A DNA stretch of 64,000 bases, taken from the NCBI GenBank assembly GCA_048941185.1, contig JBHLNW010000009.1:5236-69235 (forward strand), in the 5' to 3' direction. Source of the stretch: Promethearchaeota archaeon. Lineage in GTDB: Archaea > Asgardarchaeota > Lokiarchaeia > Sigyniarchaeales > SOKP01. The notes beneath the pieces are model-generated. The model did no database searches. It saw only the letters and a list, made by a program, of their open reading frames with translations, and was not told the DNA's origin. Made by a program: the position numbers and the translations under genes. Below are positions 2,645 to 16,520 of this stretch, in pieces (within the stretch, counting starts at the first letter, position 1; the number at the start of each line of letters is the position of its first letter).

Positions 2645-2829
2645 TGGGCCATCGGGGAGTTTCATGATTGATCTAACCAATCAAGCCATTTCGAACCCCG
2701 GATCTCAGGTTTTTACTAAAATACGGACAATTTTTTCTGTTTTTTGTATGTCCGTAGGTCATTTATAAGACCTGCGCTTGTTGACCAAGCTTTTTTAAAA
2801 CCTTGTTAACCAGTCTGAGCTAATGGCCC
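2645..2829 (-). tRNA. intron-containing tRNA, probably tRNA-Ile (anticodon TAT), with three insertions (D-loop, 37/38, T-loop 59/60)
   Basis: Minus-strand acceptor GGGCCAT (2829-2823) pairs with ATGGCCC (2652-2646); discriminator A2645. D stem GCTC/(A)AGC. Anticodon stem CAGGT (2774-2770)/ACCTG (2710-2706); loop CTTATA|A with TAT at 2767-2765. 52-nt intron at 2763-2712 containing hairpin ACGGACA/TGTCCGT. T stem CGGGG/CCCCG with loop TTCGAA|T split by a 31-nt insert (2689-2659). About 25-29 nt extra in the D-loop (approx 2779-2807). Confidence 0.65.
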
Positions 2830-3045
2830 ACCTATTAAATTAATTTACTCAGATACATCTAATCAATTTAATTTTTTATACAATACCTATTACAATGGTT
2901 ATGTATCTAGATAGTAAATATAATCTAATAAAATCACGAAAAGATAAAAATTTTTTTATTGGTGTAATCTGTTATATTTATAAATGAAATAATAAAAAGA
3001 GACTTTAGTTAATTACAAAAAAAATATTGAATTAGTTGATACAAA

Positions 3046-3459
3046 ATGGCTGAAATGTTAACAGATCTACTTCAGAATATCTACAAAAGAATTGCTCAAT
3101 TAGGACAATCAATTCAACAATTAAATGATTCCCTCAATACTCTTAATCGAAATATTGAAGAAAAAATTGCAAATTTAACTGCGAAATTAGAAGAATTTTC
3201 TAATGAAATTAAAGTTACTCAAACAAAACATATTGATGTTGTAAAGGAGATTGGGGGAGGAACTACAAAAGAATTGAAAGTTATTCAAGAAGGCTTAGGT
3301 TTAGATTCTTTAAAAAATCTTATTAAGAAACTTGAGGATTTTTCTAAGCTTTCTGAAGGTGTTCTCAATCAAGATACTGTGAATTTATTATTATCAGAAG
3401 CAATTGATTCTGTTAAAAGTCTTAAACAATCTATTAAAGAAGAAGAGGTAATAGAATAA
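3046..3459 (+). CDS. coiled-coil protein (137 aa), paralogue of the next gene
   Basis: ORF with heptad-rich sequence (LLQNIYKRIAQLGQSIQQLNDSLNTLNRNIEEKIANL...). It starts MAEML, like its neighbour. No TM segment. Confidence 0.6.
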   Translation: MAEMLTDLLQNIYKRIAQLGQSIQQLNDSLNTLNRNIEEKIANLTAKLEEFSNEIKVTQTKHIDVVKEIGGGTTKELKVIQEGLGLDSLKNLIKKLEDFSKLSEGVLNQDTVNLLLSEAIDSVKSLKQSIKEEEVIE

Positions 3460-3477
3460 ATTTAAAGGTGTGAAAAG

Positions 3478-3897
3478 TTGGCAGAGGCTTTATTAGATGA
3501 AATGATTCAAAAAATAAATCAAATTATGGCTTCTTTGGATGGCACAATAGCTCAGATTAACCTAATGAGAGGTGCTATTGAACAAATGAGTCAAAATTTT
3601 TCTGAACAAACAGTTGCTATGACAGAAAATATTCGACTAATAGTAGAAGTTTTAAAACAATTTAGAGTTCAATCTACTAAGAGTCTTTCAGATCTTTCTG
3701 ATGATTTTAATGAAAAAATAAAAGAACTCTGGGAAAAGAAGTCCATTGAAGCAATTACAGAAGAAGAAAAGAAGGCAATTGATATTATAAGAAAAGCATC
3801 TAAAGCTGTAACAGATAATCTTTATTTTGCTCAATTATTGAATATAATTCAAAGTATTAGAGAAGAAACTAATAGAATAATTAGTGCCAGTCAATAA
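3478..3897 (+). CDS. coiled-coil protein (139 aa), paralogue of the previous gene
   Basis: TTG start preceded by aaaGGTGtgaaaag. The N-terminus (M)AEALLDEMIQKINQI parallels MAEMLTDLLQNIYKRI of the upstream ORF, with similar length and heptad pattern. Confidence 0.6.
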   Translation: MAEALLDEMIQKINQIMASLDGTIAQINLMRGAIEQMSQNFSEQTVAMTENIRLIVEVLKQFRVQSTKSLSDLSDDFNEKIKELWEKKSIEAITEEEKKAIDIIRKASKAVTDNLYFAQLLNIIQSIREETNRIISASQ

Positions 3898-3969
3898 TAA
3901 ATTTTTAATTTTTTTAAACTTAGTTTTAATTTAGTTTAATAATATATATTAGAAGGTGCATAAGGTTAA

Positions 3970-4875
3970 ATGCCAACGGGCTGTTTCGTCATATTGCTTC
4001 CCACCGATTCTGATTACAAGATTTTGGGATATTATTTTAAAGAGGGTAAATCTAGTTTTGAAATTAAAAATGATATTTTTCTAAGGTTAAATCTAGATCA
4101 TTCCAAGAATGAATATAATTTACTAAAAATAAAGGATCTTCAAATTTTTTCGTATAATCATAAATTTAAAGGAAAATTAACTCGGAATGCCTCAGGGCTT
4201 ATAATTGGGTTAATATTAAATGAAAATGACAAACCAGAAAAATTTCGTTCATCTCTTAAAGAAGCTGCAGAAGCTTTTGAAATCCCAAGTCTCAAAATTC
4301 TTAAGAAATCAAGAGAAGAATTTGAGGGGTTATTGAAGGATGTATATTTGGAGCATATAGAACCATTAGTAGATATATTACAACCTGAAGCATTAAAAGT
4401 TAGTATTATTAATATTACTAAATTTATGCTTAGCGGAGGGAAAAATGAAAGAAAAATTGCTCAAGAACTATTAGAAAAGGTTGAAAATGGTGATCATAAT
4501 AAAATTTCAGAGTATTATAATACCGCAGAAAGTGCAATGAAATCTTTAGATTATGAAAAAGCAGCCAAATTTTACGCTAAAGCTGCAGAAATTGCTGAAA
4601 GTCTGTATATAATGGATATAGCTGCTTCTCTTAAGGAAAAAGGCGATTTCTCTCAAAAAATACCTGATCTATCTAAAGAAAGAGAAAGAGTGGTACAAGA
4701 AGCTAGAAATGCTCTTAGAAATGAGGATTTTCATACTGCTTACACATTATATAGAAAAGCAAGTGAGATTTCTAAAAAATTAGTCCAATTTGATCAAGAA
4801 GAGGAATATAGATTAAAATCAAAAGCTTTAGAAGATTTTTATAAAATCGATGAAAAATATAGAAAAAATAAATAA
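3970..4875 (+). CDS. two-domain protein: N-terminal alpha/beta domain (longin/roadblock-like guess) plus two C-terminal MIT/TPR-like helical repeats
   Basis: 301-aa ORF. Residues ~1-105 alternate beta-like and helical segments (GCFVILLPT, KILGYYF, LQIFSYNHKF, GLIIGLILNE, KFRSSLKEAAEAFE). The C-terminal repeats AESAMKSLDYEKAAKFYAKAAEIAESL and QEARNALRNEDFHTAYTLYRKASEISKKL...YRLKSKALEDFYKIDEKYRK resemble the Vps4 MIT pattern (A..A...nYeeA..lY..A.e). Confidence 0.55.
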   Translation: MPTGCFVILLPTDSDYKILGYYFKEGKSSFEIKNDIFLRLNLDHSKNEYNLLKIKDLQIFSYNHKFKGKLTRNASGLIIGLILNENDKPEKFRSSLKEAAEAFEIPSLKILKKSREEFEGLLKDVYLEHIEPLVDILQPEALKVSIINITKFMLSGGKNERKIAQELLEKVENGDHNKISEYYNTAESAMKSLDYEKAAKFYAKAAEIAESLYIMDIAASLKEKGDFSQKIPDLSKERERVVQEARNALRNEDFHTAYTLYRKASEISKKLVQFDQEEEYRLKSKALEDFYKIDEKYRKNK

Positions 4876-5781: not shown

Positions 5782-6915
5782 ATGAATAATGAAATTTTGG
5801 TGTGTATTGAGAAAAACAATAAAAAATTTTTACAATCTGGCCAAATTTCTAAATACGTTTTTCCTATGAAAAGAATTGAGGCCCATGAGAAAAAAGTAAG
5901 TCATTTAATTACGAGATTTTTCATATTATCAATATCTCTAGATGGTTCTCCATTATACTTAGTACAAAAACGTGGAAAAAGTAAAAAAACATTTCCTGGA
6001 TATTTTACTGATTCATCATCAGGGCATGTAAATTGGGAAAAATACTTGGACTTAAATAAAATTAAGAATAATGCTTTAAGGGAACTTGAAGAAGAATTCG
6101 GAATCCCTCCAAGAGAAGTTAAGAAAGTGCAGCTTTATGATTTGAATTCAGAGGGTGATGAAATAGCATATATTTTTTTAGGATTTGTTAAATATGACGT
6201 TCCTTTAAATCCAGATGAGGAAGAATTAGATTTTAAATTTAGTAGATTTTATAACAAGGCTGAACTTGAAAAAATATTAGAAACTGAAAAATATATTGAT
6301 TATTCAAAACAAATTTGGGAAAAACTGTTAAATAAAGATATTTCCTCGATCTTCGAGAAGAAAAATGTAAATAATACCAAAAATACTTATAGAGTTGCTC
6401 TGTTTCTTGGAAGATTCCAACCTCTTCATCACGGGCATATTTATGTCATTAAGCAAATTTTAAAATTTAATAAAAAAATTAAAATTGGAATTGGTAGTTC
6501 TCAAATATCCAATACCTTAAATGATCCATTTACATCTGATGAAAGAAAAAAGTTTATTATCACAGCTCTAGAAAGAAGAAGTATTTCCTCAAAATCTTAC
6601 GAATTATTTGATATACCGGATATTTTCAACGCTAAAAAATGGGTAGATCATGTTATCTCAATTGTTGGGAAATTTGATATAGTTTATTCAAATAGTGACT
6701 GGGTGAGAGAATTATTTTCTAATAAGGGTATAAAAGTAGGGAACAAAATTTCCATTTTTAAAAAAAAGTTCAATGGGAACAATGTTAGAAATTTAATTAT
6801 TAAAAATAAAAAAGAGTGGAAAAGTTTAGTGCCTAATGAAGTTGTTGAACTTATAGGAGAATATAATGGGGTTAGTAGATTAAAAACTTTATATGAAAAA
6901 GAGAGAAAATCATAG
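5782..6915 (+). CDS. nadM: fusion protein: N-terminal Nudix hydrolase domain plus C-terminal archaeal-type nicotinamide-nucleotide adenylyltransferase
   Basis: Nudix signature RELEEEFGI (REUxEExGU) at about residue 100. NMNAT motif GRFQPLHHGH and later NDPFTSDERKKFI in the C-terminal half. The ORF track starts at GTG 5773; ATG at 5782. Confidence 0.75.
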   Translation: MNNEILVCIEKNNKKFLQSGQISKYVFPMKRIEAHEKKVSHLITRFFILSISLDGSPLYLVQKRGKSKKTFPGYFTDSSSGHVNWEKYLDLNKIKNNALRELEEEFGIPPREVKKVQLYDLNSEGDEIAYIFLGFVKYDVPLNPDEEELDFKFSRFYNKAELEKILETEKYIDYSKQIWEKLLNKDISSIFEKKNVNNTKNTYRVALFLGRFQPLHHGHIYVIKQILKFNKKIKIGIGSSQISNTLNDPFTSDERKKFIITALERRSISSKSYELFDIPDIFNAKKWVDHVISIVGKFDIVYSNSDWVRELFSNKGIKVGNKISIFKKKFNGNNVRNLIIKNKKEWKSLVPNEVVELIGEYNGVSRLKTLYEKERKS

Positions 6916-7973
6916 TGGTAGATAATACTTTAGAAATTGATGGAGCTTTAGGGGAAGGTGGAGGTGCCATACTTCGTATAGCAGCGGGATTTTCAATATT
7001 ATTAGAACGGCCAATTATAATCAATAATATACGAGCAAATAGACCTAAACCAGGTCTACGATTACAACATTTATTAGGTCTAAGAACTTTATCCAAATTA
7101 ACAAATAGTGAATTATCAGAATGTCAAGTTGGTACAGAAAAATTAACATTAAAACCAAGCCAATCAGTAAAAAGTAATATTGATGTAAAAATTACTACTG
7201 CAGCTAATATTGGTTTACTACTTCAGCCTATTCAAATCGCAAGTTTGGGTTTTAAAAAGCTTGACAAAATAAAGATAATTATTAATGGTGGTGGAACATT
7301 TGGAAAATGGGCTCCAAGTCTTAATTATCTTAAATATGTTACGTATAATATTTTTGGAAATCATGGATATACCATTGACATTGATATTCAAAAACATGGT
7401 TTTTACCCTAAAGGGGGTGCAGTTGCAATATGTACAATATATCCGCCTAAAAGCAAACTTAAATCGCTTGATTTAACAGAATTAGGCTTTATCAATTTAA
7501 TACAAGGAGAAATTATTTGTACAAATCATTTAATAAATAAAAAAATATGTGAAAGAATCAAAAAAACTCTAATACTCCACTTAAATAAAAATTTAGGCAT
7601 TGATGTTAAAATAAAATATAAATATGTAAATTCCTTAAGTCCAGGAGTAGGCCTTTCGTTGTGGGCAAATTCAGATACAGGGGCGATAATTTCTTCTGGA
7701 ACTATATTAGGTGAAAGAAATATTACTTCAGAAGATCTTGGTCGTATGGCAGCAGATAAAATCATAACATATATTAAAAACAAGATACCTGTTGATAATT
7801 ATTTAAGTGATCAATTAATTCCTTTCATAGGATTTATTGAAGAGCCTTCAAGCATAAAAGTCCTTGAGGTAACAAACCACACCAAAACTAACCTAGAATT
7901 ACTTAAGTTATTTTTAAAAAGAAATTATCAAATTAAAAAAGAAAAAACACATTTTATCATAGAATTTGAGTAA
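6915..7973 (+). CDS. rtcA: RNA 3'-terminal phosphate cyclase
   Basis: N-terminal EIDGALGEGGGAILRIAAGFSIL...RANRPKPGLRLQHL matches the RtcA signature. LSDQLIPF and a C-terminal His (EVTNHTKTNLELL) are present at the position of the adenylylated histidine. The GTG start overlaps the upstream stop (taGTG). Confidence 0.85.
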   Translation: MVDNTLEIDGALGEGGGAILRIAAGFSILLERPIIINNIRANRPKPGLRLQHLLGLRTLSKLTNSELSECQVGTEKLTLKPSQSVKSNIDVKITTAANIGLLLQPIQIASLGFKKLDKIKIIINGGGTFGKWAPSLNYLKYVTYNIFGNHGYTIDIDIQKHGFYPKGGAVAICTIYPPKSKLKSLDLTELGFINLIQGEIICTNHLINKKICERIKKTLILHLNKNLGIDVKIKYKYVNSLSPGVGLSLWANSDTGAIISSGTILGERNITSEDLGRMAADKIITYIKNKIPVDNYLSDQLIPFIGFIEEPSSIKVLEVTNHTKTNLELLKLFLKRNYQIKKEKTHFIIEFE

Positions 7974-9057: not shown

Positions 9058-9678
9058 ATGAATGAAGATTTTAATAATCCTGAGATTGAATCGAATATTG
9101 AATCTGAACTATTTGCATTAGTTAAATCCATAACAAATTTAAATATTAAATATCAAAACGGAATAGTTAATCAAAATTTCTTCAAAAAGGCATTAAAAAC
9201 AACCATGATTAACTTATTGAAGATTAATTTTACCTTAAAGGAAAATAAGCTTCATCTACCAGATCTCCTTGCTAGAATGGACCTAACGCAAGAGTATAAC
9301 TCCGCTATCGATATTATAAATCGAGTTTCATCACTTAGTCTATCTGATAAAGATATGGCAACAAAAAACCGTACCTTTTTAGAATTACCTGGAATTACTT
9401 CCAAAATAACAACGTCTTTTATCACCCTTATGGATGCGTTAACTTTGGATGGGTTACCAAAAAACGATCTAATTTTGAATTTATTTGAAGAGTTAATTTA
9501 TGATTTAGGTAAATTTCCAGGATTAGATAATATTCAATCTAGAGTTAAATCAGTTCAAACTAATGCCATTAATCAAGATGACCGAATATTTTCTAATGAA
9601 ACATTAAGAGAAAAATTAATAGAAGATTTATACCAAATTTTCAAACAATTTCAAAATAAACTAAATCTGAAATCATAG
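9058..9678 (+). CDS. vps28: Vps28 homologue (ESCRT-I subunit-like)
   Basis: Collinear by-eye matches to eukaryotic VPS28: ELFALVKSITNL vs ELFAVVKTMQAL; SFITLMDALTL vs LFITVMDKLRL; NLFEELIYDLGKFPGL vs DLRELMETMHRMSHLP; LREKLIEDLYQIFKQFQNKL vs VRQMLFDLESAYNAFNRFL. Similar length (206 vs ~221 aa). Confidence 0.75.
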   Translation: MNEDFNNPEIESNIESELFALVKSITNLNIKYQNGIVNQNFFKKALKTTMINLLKINFTLKENKLHLPDLLARMDLTQEYNSAIDIINRVSSLSLSDKDMATKNRTFLELPGITSKITTSFITLMDALTLDGLPKNDLILNLFEELIYDLGKFPGLDNIQSRVKSVQTNAINQDDRIFSNETLREKLIEDLYQIFKQFQNKLNLKS

Positions 9679-11088: not shown

Positions 11089-13338
11089 ATGAAATCAAGT
11101 GTAAAATCAAAAATAAAAATTTTAACCATTTTAGGAACCTTTTTCGCTTTCTCACCAATAATTACCACTAATCTTACTTTTATTACGGGTAATAGCATCA
11201 AAAGTTCGGAATATAGTGATGATATTAATTTAGATAATAAAAATCTACAAATCTCAGCAGTTTCGGGAAAGATTCATATTAGCGGTAATTCTGGTTGGAT
11301 TGATTTTAGAAATACGGGAAATTGCATAGGTCAAGGCACCTGTTCCGATCCTTATGTCATCGAAGATTTGGTAATAGATGGCAGAGGTTCAGGAAGTTGT
11401 ATCTTGATTGAATTCTCGAATGTGTATTTTAGGATTGAAAATTGTACGCTTTATAATTCCGGTTCAGGGCTATATAATGCAGGAATCAAATTAAGAAGCG
11501 TTTTAAATGGTACATTAATAAATAACGACTGTTCCACTAATAATGGTGTTGGGATAGGTTTACTGCAAAGTCAAAACATTACCATCGTTGGAAACATAGT
11601 AAACAATAATGATAATTTTGGTTTGTTTTTAGAAGTGAGTCATAATAATATTCTTTCAGAAAACACATTAAATGAGAATTCGGACGGGATTTACCTAGGT
11701 TTAAGCAATAAAAACACTATTTTGAATAACTCTGCTTCCAATAATGATTGGCAAGGGATTTATTTATCCTCTTCAAGTAATAACAATACTATAATGAACA
11801 ACTATGTTTCCTATAACAGCGACAATGGAATACACATATCTGATAGTCATGATATTAAAATTGTAGGAAATATCGCAAATCATAACAACTGGAATGGAAT
11901 ACTTATATGGGAAAGCAATAATAATACTATTTCGGGAAATAGTGCAAGCTATAACACTTTTGCGGGATTATATTTATGGAAAAGTAAAAAAAATATCATC
12001 GTAATGAACACAATTTCAAGTAATATTTATGGTATTTATTCAGATAATTCAAAATGTAATGAGGTTTCAGGTAACTTTTTTAGTGGAAATGGCGAGGATA
12101 TTTATGGTAATCCAGAAAGTTGCCCTTCTCATGAATTTCCTCTTGAAATTGTAATAATAATCTTATTGATTCTCTTTGTTATTATAATGGTTATAGGTGG
12201 GATGCTAATAATAAGAAAGAGAAGAATACCTAGAAAGCAAGTTATTTCAGATAGAAAATTGGGTGTAAGGTTAAAAGCGACTGAGATTGATACAAGAGAA
12301 AAGAAACGAAAGGTTGAAATTGAACCAGAACCAATTGTTCAATTGGAAATAGAAGAAGGAATAGTACATATTCCCCCGCTGGAAGTAGTGGAAGAAGTAG
12401 CTATCGAAAAAGTAATAATAGGCAAAGTTGCTAGGATAGAAAAAACTATTATTCCTGTTCAAACTTTTGAAGGCCATGGAAAGGGTATAAGCTCAGTGGT
12501 GTTCTCTCCTGATGGGAAATATGTTGTAAGTGCTTCAAACGACAAAACTATAAAAATATGGGAAACAACCTCAGGTAAGCTCATAAAAACGCTCGAGGGA
12601 CATAAAAAATATGTAACTTCAATTGCCATCTCTCCTGATGGAAAATACATAGTGAGTGGCTCGAACGATAGAACTGTAAAAGTCTGGGAATTTTCCACAG
12701 GAGCGTTAATCCGAACACTCGAAGGCCATAATTGGTACGTTACCGCCATAGCTGTTTCTCCTGATGGTAAATATATTGTCAGCGGTTCTTTTGATAAAGA
12801 TATTAGAGTATGGGATACAAATACCGGCGATATCGTAAGGACACTCGAGGGACACCAAAAAGAGGTACGTTCAGTTGCCATCTCTCCTGAGGGTGAATAT
12901 ATAGCTAGTGTCTCGGGTGACAGAACTCTAAAAGTCTGGAGTCTTGAGACTGGTCAGATTGTTAGAAGTATTGATGCTCACAAAAGACAAATAAATTCAG
13001 TTGTGTTTTCTCCTGATGGGAAACATGTCGTTAGTGGTTCGAATGATAAAACTATAAGAGAGTGGGATATTGCAACTGGAAAGCTCATGAGGTCTTTCGA
13101 AGGGCATAATTGGGATGTTTTAACTGTAGCTGTTTCTCTCGATGGTAATTATATGGTCAGTGGTTCATTTGATAAAGAAATTAAAGTGTGGGATTTAGCT
13201 ATTAACGAACTCGTAAGGACACTCGAGGGACATAAAAAATACGTAACTTCAGTTGCCATCTCTCCTGATAGTAAATATATAGTCAGTGGATCGAATGACA
13301 AGATCATAAAAATTTGGGAAGTCTTACAACAGCCATAG
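11089..13338 (+). CDS. receptor-like membrane protein: signal/TM, parallel beta-helix (PbH1) repeats, TM helix, seven WD40 repeats
   Basis: N-terminal hydrophobic KILTILGTFFAFSPIITT. About 22-aa repeats such as NNNDNFGLFLEVSHNNILSENTLNENSDGIYLGLSNKNTILNNSASNNDWQGIYL. TM LEIVIIILLILFVIIMVIGGMLII followed by RKRR. The C-terminus has seven exact 42-aa WD40 units (LEGH..V.S.A.SPDGKY.VSGS.D.T.K.W). Confidence 0.85.
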   Translation: MKSSVKSKIKILTILGTFFAFSPIITTNLTFITGNSIKSSEYSDDINLDNKNLQISAVSGKIHISGNSGWIDFRNTGNCIGQGTCSDPYVIEDLVIDGRGSGSCILIEFSNVYFRIENCTLYNSGSGLYNAGIKLRSVLNGTLINNDCSTNNGVGIGLLQSQNITIVGNIVNNNDNFGLFLEVSHNNILSENTLNENSDGIYLGLSNKNTILNNSASNNDWQGIYLSSSSNNNTIMNNYVSYNSDNGIHISDSHDIKIVGNIANHNNWNGILIWESNNNTISGNSASYNTFAGLYLWKSKKNIIVMNTISSNIYGIYSDNSKCNEVSGNFFSGNGEDIYGNPESCPSHEFPLEIVIIILLILFVIIMVIGGMLIIRKRRIPRKQVISDRKLGVRLKATEIDTREKKRKVEIEPEPIVQLEIEEGIVHIPPLEVVEEVAIEKVIIGKVARIEKTIIPVQTFEGHGKGISSVVFSPDGKYVVSASNDKTIKIWETTSGKLIKTLEGHKKYVTSIAISPDGKYIVSGSNDRTVKVWEFSTGALIRTLEGHNWYVTAIAVSPDGKYIVSGSFDKDIRVWDTNTGDIVRTLEGHQKEVRSVAISPEGEYIASVSGDRTLKVWSLETGQIVRSIDAHKRQINSVVFSPDGKHVVSGSNDKTIREWDIATGKLMRSFEGHNWDVLTVAVSLDGNYMVSGSFDKEIKVWDLAINELVRTLEGHKKYVTSVAISPDSKYIVSGSNDKIIKIWEVLQQP
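12463..13335 (+). repeat. intragenic tandem repeat, 7 x 126 nt (WD40 units)
   Basis: Repeat units are recognisable at DNA level, e.g. ggacataaaaaatatgtaacttcaattgccatctctcctgatgg at ~12600 vs ggacataaaaaatacgtaacttcagttgccatctctcctgatag at ~13230. Confidence 0.85.
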
Positions 13339-14235: not shown

Positions 14236-14838
14236 TTAAACATCTGGAAATTCCAAAGATTTTGCTTTTTGGCCAGCAAACATACCACCCATGCCACCCG
14301 AAGCTTGACTTTGAAGTTTGAGGACCCTTTGAACAAGAGTGTTAAAACCTAAAGAACAGAGAAAATACCAAGCTGTAAAATTTATAAAAACATTACCTGC
14401 TGCAATAAAACCGCCTATTAAGGGAATATCATTCGCATTCATTGGAGACAATGCAACTGGTTTACCAGCTAAAAGTGTATTCACAATCCCAAAGATAATA
14501 ATCATTGGCAGAAAAGTTATGCACGTTGGTTTCATTCTCTGGAGAGACATTCTTTGCTGTGATTGTTTAAACATACCTTGCTTACGTTCCCATCTTTTTC
14601 GAGCCTTTCTATATCGTTCAGGGTCAACCTCCGCTAGCCCTATTATTTTTTCTTTTTCTTCCTCATGAGATTTAATTTGTTTTTGCTTTCGGTTTATTTC
14701 CTCAGTATCTACTAATAACTTAGTTAAAGCTGCACTAATTAATGCTGTTGTTAAAGCTAAGAGTATAACGAATAACATTGAGCCTGGAGGTTTAGTAATA
14801 AAATCTAAGAAGGCATTTTGAAAGATTAATAACAACAT
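14236..14838 (-). CDS. DUF106 membrane protein (archaeal YidC/Oxa1/EMC3-type insertase homologue)
   Basis: 200 aa. TM1, then a charged coiled region (EEINRKQKQIKSHEEEKEK...RKARKRWERKQ), then two more TMs and a Gly/Met-rich tail. This topology and the position next to secY are typical of the Mj0480-like family. Confidence 0.65.
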   Translation of the reverse strand: MLLLIFQNAFLDFITKPPGSMLFVILLALTTALISAALTKLLVDTEEINRKQKQIKSHEEEKEKIIGLAEVDPERYRKARKRWERKQGMFKQSQQRMSLQRMKPTCITFLPMIIIFGIVNTLLAGKPVALSPMNANDIPLIGGFIAAGNVFINFTAWYFLCSLGFNTLVQRVLKLQSQASGGMGGMFAGQKAKSLEFPDV

Positions 14839-15017
14839 CTCTATATTTATTTATTTTTAAATTATTATAAAGTTTTCATATGGTTAAAAAATTAATTATT
14901 AGAAAATAAGATTATAATATCTTATTGGCTAATTATACTAGACTAAAGTTAAGTAAAAACTCACCATTAACTTTGACTGGTTTTACAGATTTTTTGTTTA
15001 CCCATAAGAAGTTTATC

Positions 15018-16520
15018 CTAATCCATTCCAAGCAATGCTCTCATACCGGGATACTGACTTGCAGCGAGTTCTTTAGCGAGAGTCTCCCCATATTGGTGGA
15101 TAATCCCTATAGCTATTAATAACCCAGTCCCAGAAGTCAATGCACCCAAAGTATCTGCTCCAAAACTCAAACATGCTATAATAAATCCGTTTAAGACGAT
15201 TAATGTTGGTATATATCGTTTTAATATTCGTTCAATTATTTTTGCGGAGCTTCTAAATCCCGGGACTTGCATTTTTGAGTCTATAATTTGTTGAGCGATA
15301 TCACGCGGAGCTAATCCTGAAACTTCAACCCAGACACGGCCGAGTATTATGCACAAAAATATAAATATCACTAAGTAAATAACTCCCCTCAACGGATTTG
15401 CTGCGAAATCTGCTAGACCTATTGGTGGTGTAAGTAAATATATTAATCCTCCTGTCGGAATAAGTTGAGTTCCTTGAATTCCTCCACTTTCGACTTCATC
15501 AAACATTCCTATAATATTAACCCAGAAATCTGGGATAGGTCCACCGTTATCTTGACGTAGCCAAGATTCAGGTCCAGCAAATAATTGGCCAAAAAATAGA
15601 ATATTCGCATACAATGCATTGACTAAAATAACAGGAATGTTGGAAACATAGAGTAATTTCATTGGGTATTTACTTTTAAAGCCTCTACTGCCTCGATATG
15701 CAAGTGGTATCTCAACACGAGTTGATTCAAACCAAATCACGATCAGGAAGATAGCTATAGTAGTAATTATCCCTAATAATGATGGATAAGTGCCTCCAGG
15801 AAAAGTCCGGGAAAATAATGTCCCCAATTGTCCCAGCGTGTCAGGATTATTATCAAATAATGCCCAAAAAAAGGCTATAACAATCCCTTTTGGTAATCCA
15901 TCTCCTTCACCTATAGCACTAGGCGTAGGAGCGAAACTAAAGGCATTCCAAAAGATTTGTCCAGCGACGCCAGCAGCTATGAATAAGGATACACCACTTC
16001 CAAGCCCCCAACCCTTCTGAAGAACTTCATCTAGCAATATAATAATTATTCCTGCAAATAGTAATTGGAAAAAAACAAAAACTCCATTTGCAAGTCCTAA
16101 CGAACCAAATGCCCCTCCGAAAATATAAGCTATAGAGTTGAATATTGTTAAAAATATGGCAAGGACTTTTTGAGCTCCACTAAACATTGCTCTATCATAT
16201 GGATCTGCCATATTGACATTAATTAATCGTGATCCAAGAAGTAATTGCATAATAAGGCCCGAGGTGACTATTGGCCCTATACCTAATTCTGTTAACATCC
16301 CCCTCTCACTAGCAAGAATAACTCTCAACCAATAAAAATAGTCTGTTGATTCATCAAGTTGTATTCCATAGAGCGGAATTTTACTCATAACTAGGTAAAT
16401 AATTAAGACTATTACAGTCCAGATCAATTTCTCTTTAAAAGAAACTTCGCGCTGCGGTTGTTTAACTTCCGGTATTGCCTTTACAAACGGAGAGAAGAAT
16501 CTAAGGAACTTTCCAGCCAT
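15018..16520 (-). CDS. secY: preprotein translocase subunit SecY (Sec61 alpha)
   Basis: 500 aa, 10-TM pattern. N-terminal FVKAIPEVKQPQREVSFKEKLIWT, LGIGPIVTSGLIMQLL and LYVSNIPVIL motifs characteristic of archaeal SecY. Confidence 0.9.
   Translation of the reverse strand: MAGKFLRFFSPFVKAIPEVKQPQREVSFKEKLIWTVIVLIIYLVMSKIPLYGIQLDESTDYFYWLRVILASERGMLTELGIGPIVTSGLIMQLLLGSRLINVNMADPYDRAMFSGAQKVLAIFLTIFNSIAYIFGGAFGSLGLANGVFVFFQLLFAGIIIILLDEVLQKGWGLGSGVSLFIAAGVAGQIFWNAFSFAPTPSAIGEGDGLPKGIVIAFFWALFDNNPDTLGQLGTLFSRTFPGGTYPSLLGIITTIAIFLIVIWFESTRVEIPLAYRGSRGFKSKYPMKLLYVSNIPVILVNALYANILFFGQLFAGPESWLRQDNGGPIPDFWVNIIGMFDEVESGGIQGTQLIPTGGLIYLLTPPIGLADFAANPLRGVIYLVIFIFLCIILGRVWVEVSGLAPRDIAQQIIDSKMQVPGFRSSAKIIERILKRYIPTLIVLNGFIIACLSFGADTLGALTSGTGLLIAIGIIHQYGETLAKELAASQYPGMRALLGMD

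Follow-up and report, generated by a model that had tools for sequence, protein, structure and literature searches.

Three adjacent genes, termed P1, P2 and P3, in a 64,000-nucleotide stretch of contig JBHLNW010000009.1 from a Promethearchaeota archaeon of the Lokiarchaeia (the whole stretch is referred to as the window) form a conserved cassette, and the third product combines a predicted N-terminal longin domain with TPR-like helical repeats. We infer that P1, P2 and P3 make up an Asgard-specific gene module, which probably encodes one protein complex. The explanation favoured here, tentatively and at slightly less than even confidence, is that of an Asgard-specific longin–TPR scaffold that has two helical partners and a small GTPase as its target. 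P3 would be the scaffold, with the longin domain at its N-terminus and the TPR-like C-terminal domain serving as a protein–protein interaction surface. P1 and P2 would most likely pair as a heteromeric helical bundle that docks onto P3, and the module would most likely regulate, as a GTPase-activating protein (GAP) or guanine nucleotide exchange factor (GEF), or read out a Rab/Arf/Rag-like small GTPase whose gene lies at another genomic location. The features of the cassette are as follows.

3046–3459, plus strand: P1, 137 aa, ATG start, acidic, all-alpha, no known family
3478–3897, plus strand: P2, 139 aa, TTG start (read as MAEAL...), all-alpha, distant paralogue of P1
3970–4875, plus strand: P3, open reading frame (ORF) of 301 aa
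3970–4281, plus strand: predicted longin domain of P3, residues 1–104, β1-β2-α1-β3-β4-β5-α2 (AlphaFold2 model, Foldseek, family alignments)
4300–4875, plus strand: TPR-like helical repeat region of P3, residues 111–301 (AlphaFold2, Pfam)
2935–3000, plus strand: conserved AT-rich block upstream of P1, containing TTTATAAA at 2976–2983

Gene order and the helical proteins P1 and P2

The three ORFs lie on the plus strand at the positions given in the original prediction, an earlier reading made from the sequence alone. P1 and P2 both start with MAE, as stated there, and the spacer between them, put at 19 nt, counts 18 nt. Database relatives number 654 for P1 (the best 120 at 83–100% identity) and 337 for P3, which, together with a gene order kept in 83 loci, indicates real genes rather than ORFs that arose by chance. 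Family members are named only "hypothetical protein" or, for P3 relatives in some source databases, "TPR repeat protein", and none of the three products meaningfully passes a curated family threshold, in agreement with the initial statement that no family could be named. The proteins of the window are 65–100% identical to those of Promethearchaeota/Lokiarchaeia metagenome-assembled genomes.

The close relatives comprise 80 GTDB species-representative genomes and three further loci, and in all 83 of these loci P1, P2 and P3 are adjacent, in the same order and on the same strand. This order alone shows little, because the entire block from the SepSecS gene through a Vps28-like gene is also conserved in the close clade. 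The triad order is, in addition, kept in three divergent lineages, L084 (GCA_021498095.1), L086 and L092, in which the identities to the window proteins are 35–37% for P1, 42–50% for P2 and 26–35% for P3. Among 1.8 billion cluster representatives searched with a profile, full-length P3 homologues are recovered down to 20–36% identity, and a metagenome scan seeded with divergent P2 sequences yields 66 loci, nearly all of which show the order P1–P2–P3 where the flank is sufficient. The conserved cassette that had been proposed is therefore upheld across the 80 species genomes and the divergent lineages. P3 is the usual but non-obligatory neighbour of P1–P2: a few contigs carry P1–P2 without an adjacent P3, and the L091 lineage carries P3 without P1 or P2, which leaves P1–P2 as the tightest pair.

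Upstream of P1, the AT-rich block at 2935–3000 aligns by blastn in 66–79 of the 83 related loci and, judging from its sequence, probably acts as an archaeal TATA/BRE promoter for the transcription unit of P1; the first 12 kb of the window are AT-rich as a whole (26–34% G+C). A conserved GTTGAT is also located upstream of P1. AGGTG precedes both P2, where it lies 9 nt upstream of the TTG start, and P3, and Shine–Dalgarno (SD)-like GGTG motifs are found before P2 and before P3 in roughly two thirds of the loci (53 of 80 for P2). Read-through from P1 into P2 was rejected: the two genes are in the same frame in the window, but their frames differ in L002. A selenoprotein (UGA) reading of P1 was rejected because its stop codon is TAA.

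The pairwise similarity of P1 and P2 is marginal (BLASTP, 25% identity, E 0.004). Profile-to-profile comparison with hhalign gives a probability of 92.4% and an E of 5.2e-7 over 101 collinear columns from residue 1, and a search of the window with the P1 profile detects P2 (E 7e-5). The proposed paralogy is thus borne out at the profile level, and on these sequence comparisons P1 and P2 are distant paralogues. Both proteins are acidic, lack proline and cysteine and carry sharply conserved glycine-containing motifs; the conserved motifs of P1 are MLTDLLQNIY.RI.QLG, IG and GLGL, and those invariant in P2 are LDGT.AQI, EN.RLI.EV.K and NLY..QLL..IQS. The description of both proteins as heptad-rich throughout holds for residues ~5–55 of P1, where hydrophobic residues follow a regular 3/4 spacing, but not overall: the whole-protein periodicity peaks (3.35 for P1, 3.8 for P2) are not significant against shuffled sequences (p 0.08–0.09), and the AlphaFold2 model of P1 contains four helices (2–57, 63–81, 86–103 and 109–135) rather than a single continuous coiled coil.

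The P1 orthologues of L086 (5831–6493) and L084 (5730–6404) possess proline-rich C-terminal tails of 60–80 residues, and that of L086 is (PPPG)n with n of ~13. Such proline-rich tails are bound in eukaryotes by profilin, SH3, WW or EVH1 modules.

Three observations concern the source data. On metagenome contig L157, which is probably an assembly chimera, a truncated P2 gene is fused to high-G+C bacterial ribosomal protein genes. A batch of JBHL... assemblies (L004, L009, L011, L014, L045, L062 and others) is labelled Hodarchaeota, Hermodarchaeota, Thorarchaeota or Odinarchaeota; their loci have 70–90% protein identity and a gene order identical to Lokiarchaeial genomes, and the submitter taxonomy of the batch looks unreliable. 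L069 carries the label Nanopelagicaceae bacterium.

The longin domain and helical repeats of P3

The AlphaFold2 model of P3 (mc3234a3b93a7) has an overall predicted local distance difference test (pLDDT) score of 79.5, with values of 75–90 in the N-terminal domain. The α/β domain of ~105 residues anticipated from the sequence is present in the model, with strands at 4–11, 17–23, 49–54, 57–65 and 74–83 and helices at 34–43 and 89–102, the latter (α2) being followed by a helix at 115–130. The five-stranded order β1-β2-α1-β3-β4-β5-α2(-α3), with no helix before β1, is that of a longin domain, which assigns a longin fold to the modelled N-terminal part of P3. The initial reading had left the choice between longin and roadblock folds; strand order and the Foldseek matches speak for the former, whereas a roadblock/LC7 fold was rejected, since it would need an N-terminal helix and the model opens with a strand at residue 4.

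Longin matches to P3 in Foldseek have probabilities of 0.96–1.0. The matches in the PDB are led by the GATOR1 subunit NPRL2/Npr2 (7t3b_B, 6ces_N and 9v0j_A, and yeast Npr2 8adl_S; E 2e-4 to 2e-2, probability about 1.0), and the chains 6ces_N, 7t3a/b, 9v0j and 8adl_S were confirmed by sequence as NPRL2/Npr2. Further matches include DENND10 (8p0v_M), Sec22b (2nup_C), Lst4 (4zy8_D), the sigma subunits of AP2, AP5 and AP1 (6uri_S, 8yab_C and 8d9w_e, respectively) and an entry for a Lokiarchaeial Rag-like GTPase. In its model, the P3 longin domain appears to group with NPRL2/FLCN/DENN/AP-sigma, whose eukaryotic members form dimeric platforms with small-GTPase binding and GAP or GEF activity.

Across the P3 family, H44 and S61 are nearly invariant, and R72 does not vary among 59 Lokiarchaeial sequences; in distant family members the corresponding column is R/K but poorly aligned. 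In the linear sequence, R72 (in KLTRNASGLIIGLIL) lies two residues before β5, the same as R78 of NPRL2 (in KYSRNALLFNLGFV), and its context TRNASGLIIG seems to resemble SR78NALLFNLG of NPRL2 in both sequence and position. Arg72 may have a catalytic use. A GP motif at the end of the β1–β2 loop, with an arginine finger beside it, sets the GAP-type longins FLCN, NPRL2, SMCR8 and C9orf72 apart from other longins, and some Asgard longins have that GP motif too, as described in a 2025 survey (PMC12290439).

P3 thus shares with the class of NPRL2/Npr2 (GATOR1/SEACIT) and FLCN/SMCR8 the order of strands and helices in the N-terminal longin domain and its best structural matches, and the Helarchaeial P3 relatives described below share the GP motif before β2 and a gene location beside a small GTPase. 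There are also differences: P3 has no detectable sequence homology to the class (Pfam NPR2, NPR3 and Folliculin give no match at E<=1), its C-terminal part is TPR-like and contains neither the NPRL2 C-terminal nor the DENN domains, its cassette encodes no second longin subunit, and the GTPase beside its Helarchaeial relatives is Rab-like, not Rag-like.

In the C-terminal half, the model contains helices at 115–130, 139–154, 158–172, 175–191, 195–211, 215–250 and 254–300, with pLDDT below 50 at residues 275–288. The two repeats claimed for this region are real but short: residues 186–216 (nt 4525–4617) align with residues 245–275 (nt 4702–4794) at a score of 53, compared with a shuffle mean of 29.5 (z 4.2). 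Pfam TPR_12, TPR_2 and COG4_N match the window P3 at residues 162–212. The two TPR matches are below their cut-offs (21.1 vs 30.1 and 17.2 vs 27 bits, respectively); among 25 diverse family members, TPR_2 is found in 17 and TPR_12 in 16, with a best E of 1.9e-7, and designed consensus TPR proteins are recovered in the PDB sequence search at E 0.04–0.1. These sequence matches fit a C-terminal half that is TPR-like rather than canonical TPR. The COG4_N match (PF20663, 28.1 bits vs a cut-off of 27.3; E<=0.1 in 15 of the 25 members) falls on the TPR-like repeat and covers only profile positions 47–95 of 107; it was treated as a compositional or repeat match and was not taken to indicate a COG subunit. 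An AP-1 gamma match on residues 125–196 (E 0.004) was treated as helical-repeat noise.

Relation of the P3 family to small GTPases

The P3 homologues of Helarchaeota (profile E 7e-12 to 9e-9) supply the link to small GTPases. In four Helarchaeial contexts, L085, L087 (with the near-identical L088), L089 and L090, a small GTPase gene lies 3–22 bp upstream of the P3 homologue on the same strand.

L085, 6443–7927: small GTPase (6443–6979) and longin–TPR (7001–7927) pair
L087, 5440–6927: small GTPase and longin–TPR pair
L089, 5423–6921: small GTPase and longin–TPR pair
L090, 5077–6558: small GTPase and longin–TPR pair

The GTPases tested, those of L085 and L087, are Rab-like (Pfam Ras, E 9e-49 and 6e-51), and the best PDB matches of the L085 protein are Sec4/Rab1 (about 1e-36 to 4e-36). 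The GTPase-linked P3 relatives have an invariant G and a nearly invariant P just before β2, a pair that is also found in other branches of the family. Most relatives of the GTPase-linked branch, including all those found beside a GTPase, have an RR pair directly before β5. The Helarchaeial longin–TPR proteins end in an acidic ...LEVVDEE tail. Each such pair is a candidate GTPase–regulator pair. Within 4 kb downstream of the pair, an actin gene is located in L085 and L089, and in L085 a 723-aa upstream protein has weak UFM1-ligase/PCI matches.

Asgard longin expansions, NPRL2-like longins and one GTPase–longin/DENN operon are already known (bioRxiv 10.1101/2020.10.19.343400; PMC10933270). In Asgard genomes, small GTPases and longin/roadblock proteins number in the dozens; since their genes seldom lie side by side, almost none can be assigned to one another (PMC10933270). 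The P3 family agrees with this expansion, which includes NPRL2-like longins among the Asgard clusters of orthologous genes (asCOGs) and the operon of LAMTOR1-like, Rab-like GTPase and DENN genes of Liu et al., in being Asgard-restricted, longin-based, patchy by lineage and partly operon-linked to a Rab-like GTPase (bioRxiv 10.1101/2020.10.19.343400; PMC10933270; PMC12290439). It differs in the longin+TPR architecture and the two helical partner genes; no description of these, or of the pairing with a Rab-like GTPase in Helarchaeota, was found in the literature. The broader suggestion that the cassette is a eukaryote-like trafficking or signalling building block is retained through the longin–small GTPase connection and not through the MIT–ESCRT-III connection by which it had been made.

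Several observations weigh against a longin–TPR scaffold that acts on a GTPase. A search of the 64-kb window detects no small GTPase gene and no P3 paralogue, and in no Lokiarchaeial locus does a small GTPase gene adjoin the triad. Comparison of the P3 N-terminal domain with the NPRL2 N-terminus by hhalign gives a probability of 0.3%, the profile of this domain finds no longin among PDB sequences, and the GP motif before β2 is absent in the window P3 (...PTDSDYK..., LLPTDSDYKILG). The AlphaFold2 model of P1 has low confidence (pLDDT 59), as is common for subunits that fold only within a complex. In the L096/L097 lineage, an unrelated membrane protein follows P1–P2, and on contig L122 no P3 is present within 600 nt of the pair. 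Lastly, every non-Helarchaeial lineage examined, including L091, retains the genes for SAM hydroxide adenosyltransferase (SAM_HAT) and an NMN adenylyltransferase (NMNAT) closely downstream of P3.

Neighbouring genes and alternative explanations

The following neighbouring genes bear on the alternatives.

234–322: tRNA-Sec (Rfam, 61 bits)
339–1712: SepSecS (PF05889, 378 bits)
1836–2516: Sel_Asgard, an Asgard-specific putative selenocysteine (Sec)-system protein (NF045535, 224 bits)
2645–2829, minus strand: tRNA-Ile(UAU), unannotated, a 77-nt cloverleaf after in-silico splicing
9058–9678: Vps28-like gene (PF03997, 26.3 bits vs a cut-off of 24.5)

Downstream of P3 lie genes for SAM_HAT, a NUDIX–NMNAT fusion, an RNA 3'-phosphate cyclase, a zinc-ribbon membrane protein and the Vps28-like protein. 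The order P3–SAM_HAT–NUDIX/NMNAT in all non-Helarchaeial lineages examined, with 13–127 bp between P3 and SAM_HAT and including L091, which lacks P1 and P2, would suit a different explanation, in which P3, with or without P1 and P2, has no GTPase role and is a TPR-type adaptor or regulator of the two enzymes, for example by assembling or regulating them. This explanation is considered unlikely. SAM_HAT never has the SD-like motif of P2 and P3 (none in the window and none in 56 related loci); a conserved sequence of its own precedes the gene and points to separate expression. Furthermore, the Helarchaeial P3 homologues do not adjoin the SAM_HAT or NMNAT enzymes, and no SAM_HAT or NMNAT partner is known to have a longin or TPR domain.

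P1 and P2 could also be structural coiled-coil proteins (SNARE-, BLOC-1/BORC-, ESCRT-III-like or cytoskeleton-associated) whose assembly is regulated by the P3 longin domain, although we regard this as improbable. Longin domains regulate assembly in Sec22, Ykt6 and VAMP7, and P3 has the Sec22b longin as one of its structural matches; the P1 helix of ~50 residues is heptad-like, and the L084 and L086 orthologues have the long PPPG poly-proline tails. P1 and P2 are moreover like the small coiled-coil subunits of BLOC-1/BORC, SNAREs and prefoldin in their size of ~140 aa and their all-alpha, acidic character, and they are paired paralogues encoded beside a longin protein. This likeness does not extend to any significant match. 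Searches of Pfam, NCBIfam and PDB sequences return only sub-threshold coiled-coil noise: STX6_10_61_N in 9 of 20 P1 members (E 0.03–0.09), Muted in 2 of 15 P2 members (E 0.005), SNAPIN (E 1.2) and prefoldin alpha (E 0.13), none of them near a curated cut-off and all amid such families as Apolipoprotein and Baculo_PEP_C. No significant profile or solved-structure match assigns P1 or P2 to BLOC-1/BORC, SNARE, prefoldin or ESCRT-III. Neither protein has a transmembrane anchor, and P1 is predicted to be a multi-helix bundle with conserved glycine-containing breaks, not a single SNARE-type helix. Foldseek with the P1 model finds nothing below E 0.2, the matches being generic four-helix bundles, with CdvB among them at E 0.8 on this low-confidence model. 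BLOC-1/BORC homologues in Asgard archaea were not found to be reported in a literature search.

The original prediction likened the P3 repeats to MIT domains; if they were such domains and bound ESCRT-III tails, the cassette would be an Asgard ESCRT accessory, which we now judge to be highly improbable. The repeats are short and helical and follow a pattern, A..A...D(Y/F)..A...Y.KA.EI, that shares the Ala/aromatic arrangement of helices 1–2 of the MIT domains of Vps4, Vta1 and spastin, and MIT itself is a TPR-like three-helix unit. Pfam MIT (PF04212) does match residues 241–281, but at E 0.35 its score of 11.4 bits is far short of the cut-off of 30. The families that recur in the 25 diverse members include TPR but not MIT, and the top 50 Foldseek matches of P3 contain no structure of MIT, Vps4 or Vta1. 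The proximity of the Vps28-like gene, 4.2 kb downstream and kept in position in close relatives, had suggested the ESCRT link. This adjacency is confined to the close Lokiarchaeial clade: no such gene is near the triad in the divergent, triad-bearing L084 and L086 or near P3 in L091 (the L092 contig ends too soon), four unrelated housekeeping genes separate P3 from it, and no ESCRT-III or Vps4 gene is among the annotated nearby genes.

That the cassette belongs to the selenocysteine system (tRNA-Sec, SepSecS and the Sel protein) located directly upstream of the triad in 68–70 of the 83 loci is hardly credible and is largely refuted by breaks in synteny, given that the opposite-strand tRNA-Ile gene and the promoter-like block intervene, that the distance to the triad varies by kilobases in L042, L061, L063 and L078, and that no Sec genes lie upstream in L037, in L079 or in L084, L086 and L092, the divergent lineages that carry the triad. 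Relative to the triad, the Sec genes or Vps28 are missing or displaced in L037, L042, L078, L079, L084, L086 and L092. In related loci (L002), an archaeal SelB gene is located further upstream of the selenocysteine cluster.

The tRNA-Ile(UAU) gene sits in the 530-bp "intergenic" region upstream of P1, where it separates the upstream block of P1 from the selenocysteine genes, and is kept in 77 of the 83 loci. It contains three introns, in the D-loop (2780–2804), at position 37/38 (2711–2762) and in the T-loop (2659–2689). After splicing by hand, ARAGORN calls a perfect 77-nt cloverleaf, whereas neither ARAGORN nor Rfam detects the unspliced genomic sequence. The number and position of the introns are lineage-specific, and the gene is inverted relative to P1 in L023, L026, L035, L036 and L042. 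A 50-aa ORF at 2616–2768 is therefore spurious. Elsewhere in the window, positions 11089–13338 encode a 749-aa protein with a NosD/right-handed β-helix (~109–335) and a seven-blade WD40 propeller (~457–746). At 14236–16520 on the minus strand, an EMC3/TMCO1-like insertase gene adjoins SecY, an arrangement conserved in L001; the two are a eukaryote-like membrane-protein insertion pair.

With respect to the organisms, the P1–P2–P3 family is near the core gene set of Lokiarchaeia, its proteins being 65–95% identical across ~100 species, and three "hypothetical" genes gain an annotation. A narrower form of the longin–TPR scaffold explanation, possible but doubtful, is that P1–P2–P3 is an undescribed longin complex of Lokiarchaeia, in which a single NPRL2-like longin–TPR subunit is accompanied by two lineage-specific helical subunits that replace the Helarchaeial Rab-like GTPase gene. 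If this were true, the two locus types would for the first time pair an Asgard small GTPase with its cognate longin regulator at the level of the genome and would represent a pre-eukaryotic stage of the GATOR1/folliculin-type GAP platforms. The fixed partner genes and the Rab-like GTPase neighbour in Helarchaeota provide concrete, testable pairs for GAP or GEF activity, which could reveal whether GAP-type longin platforms predate eukaryotes.

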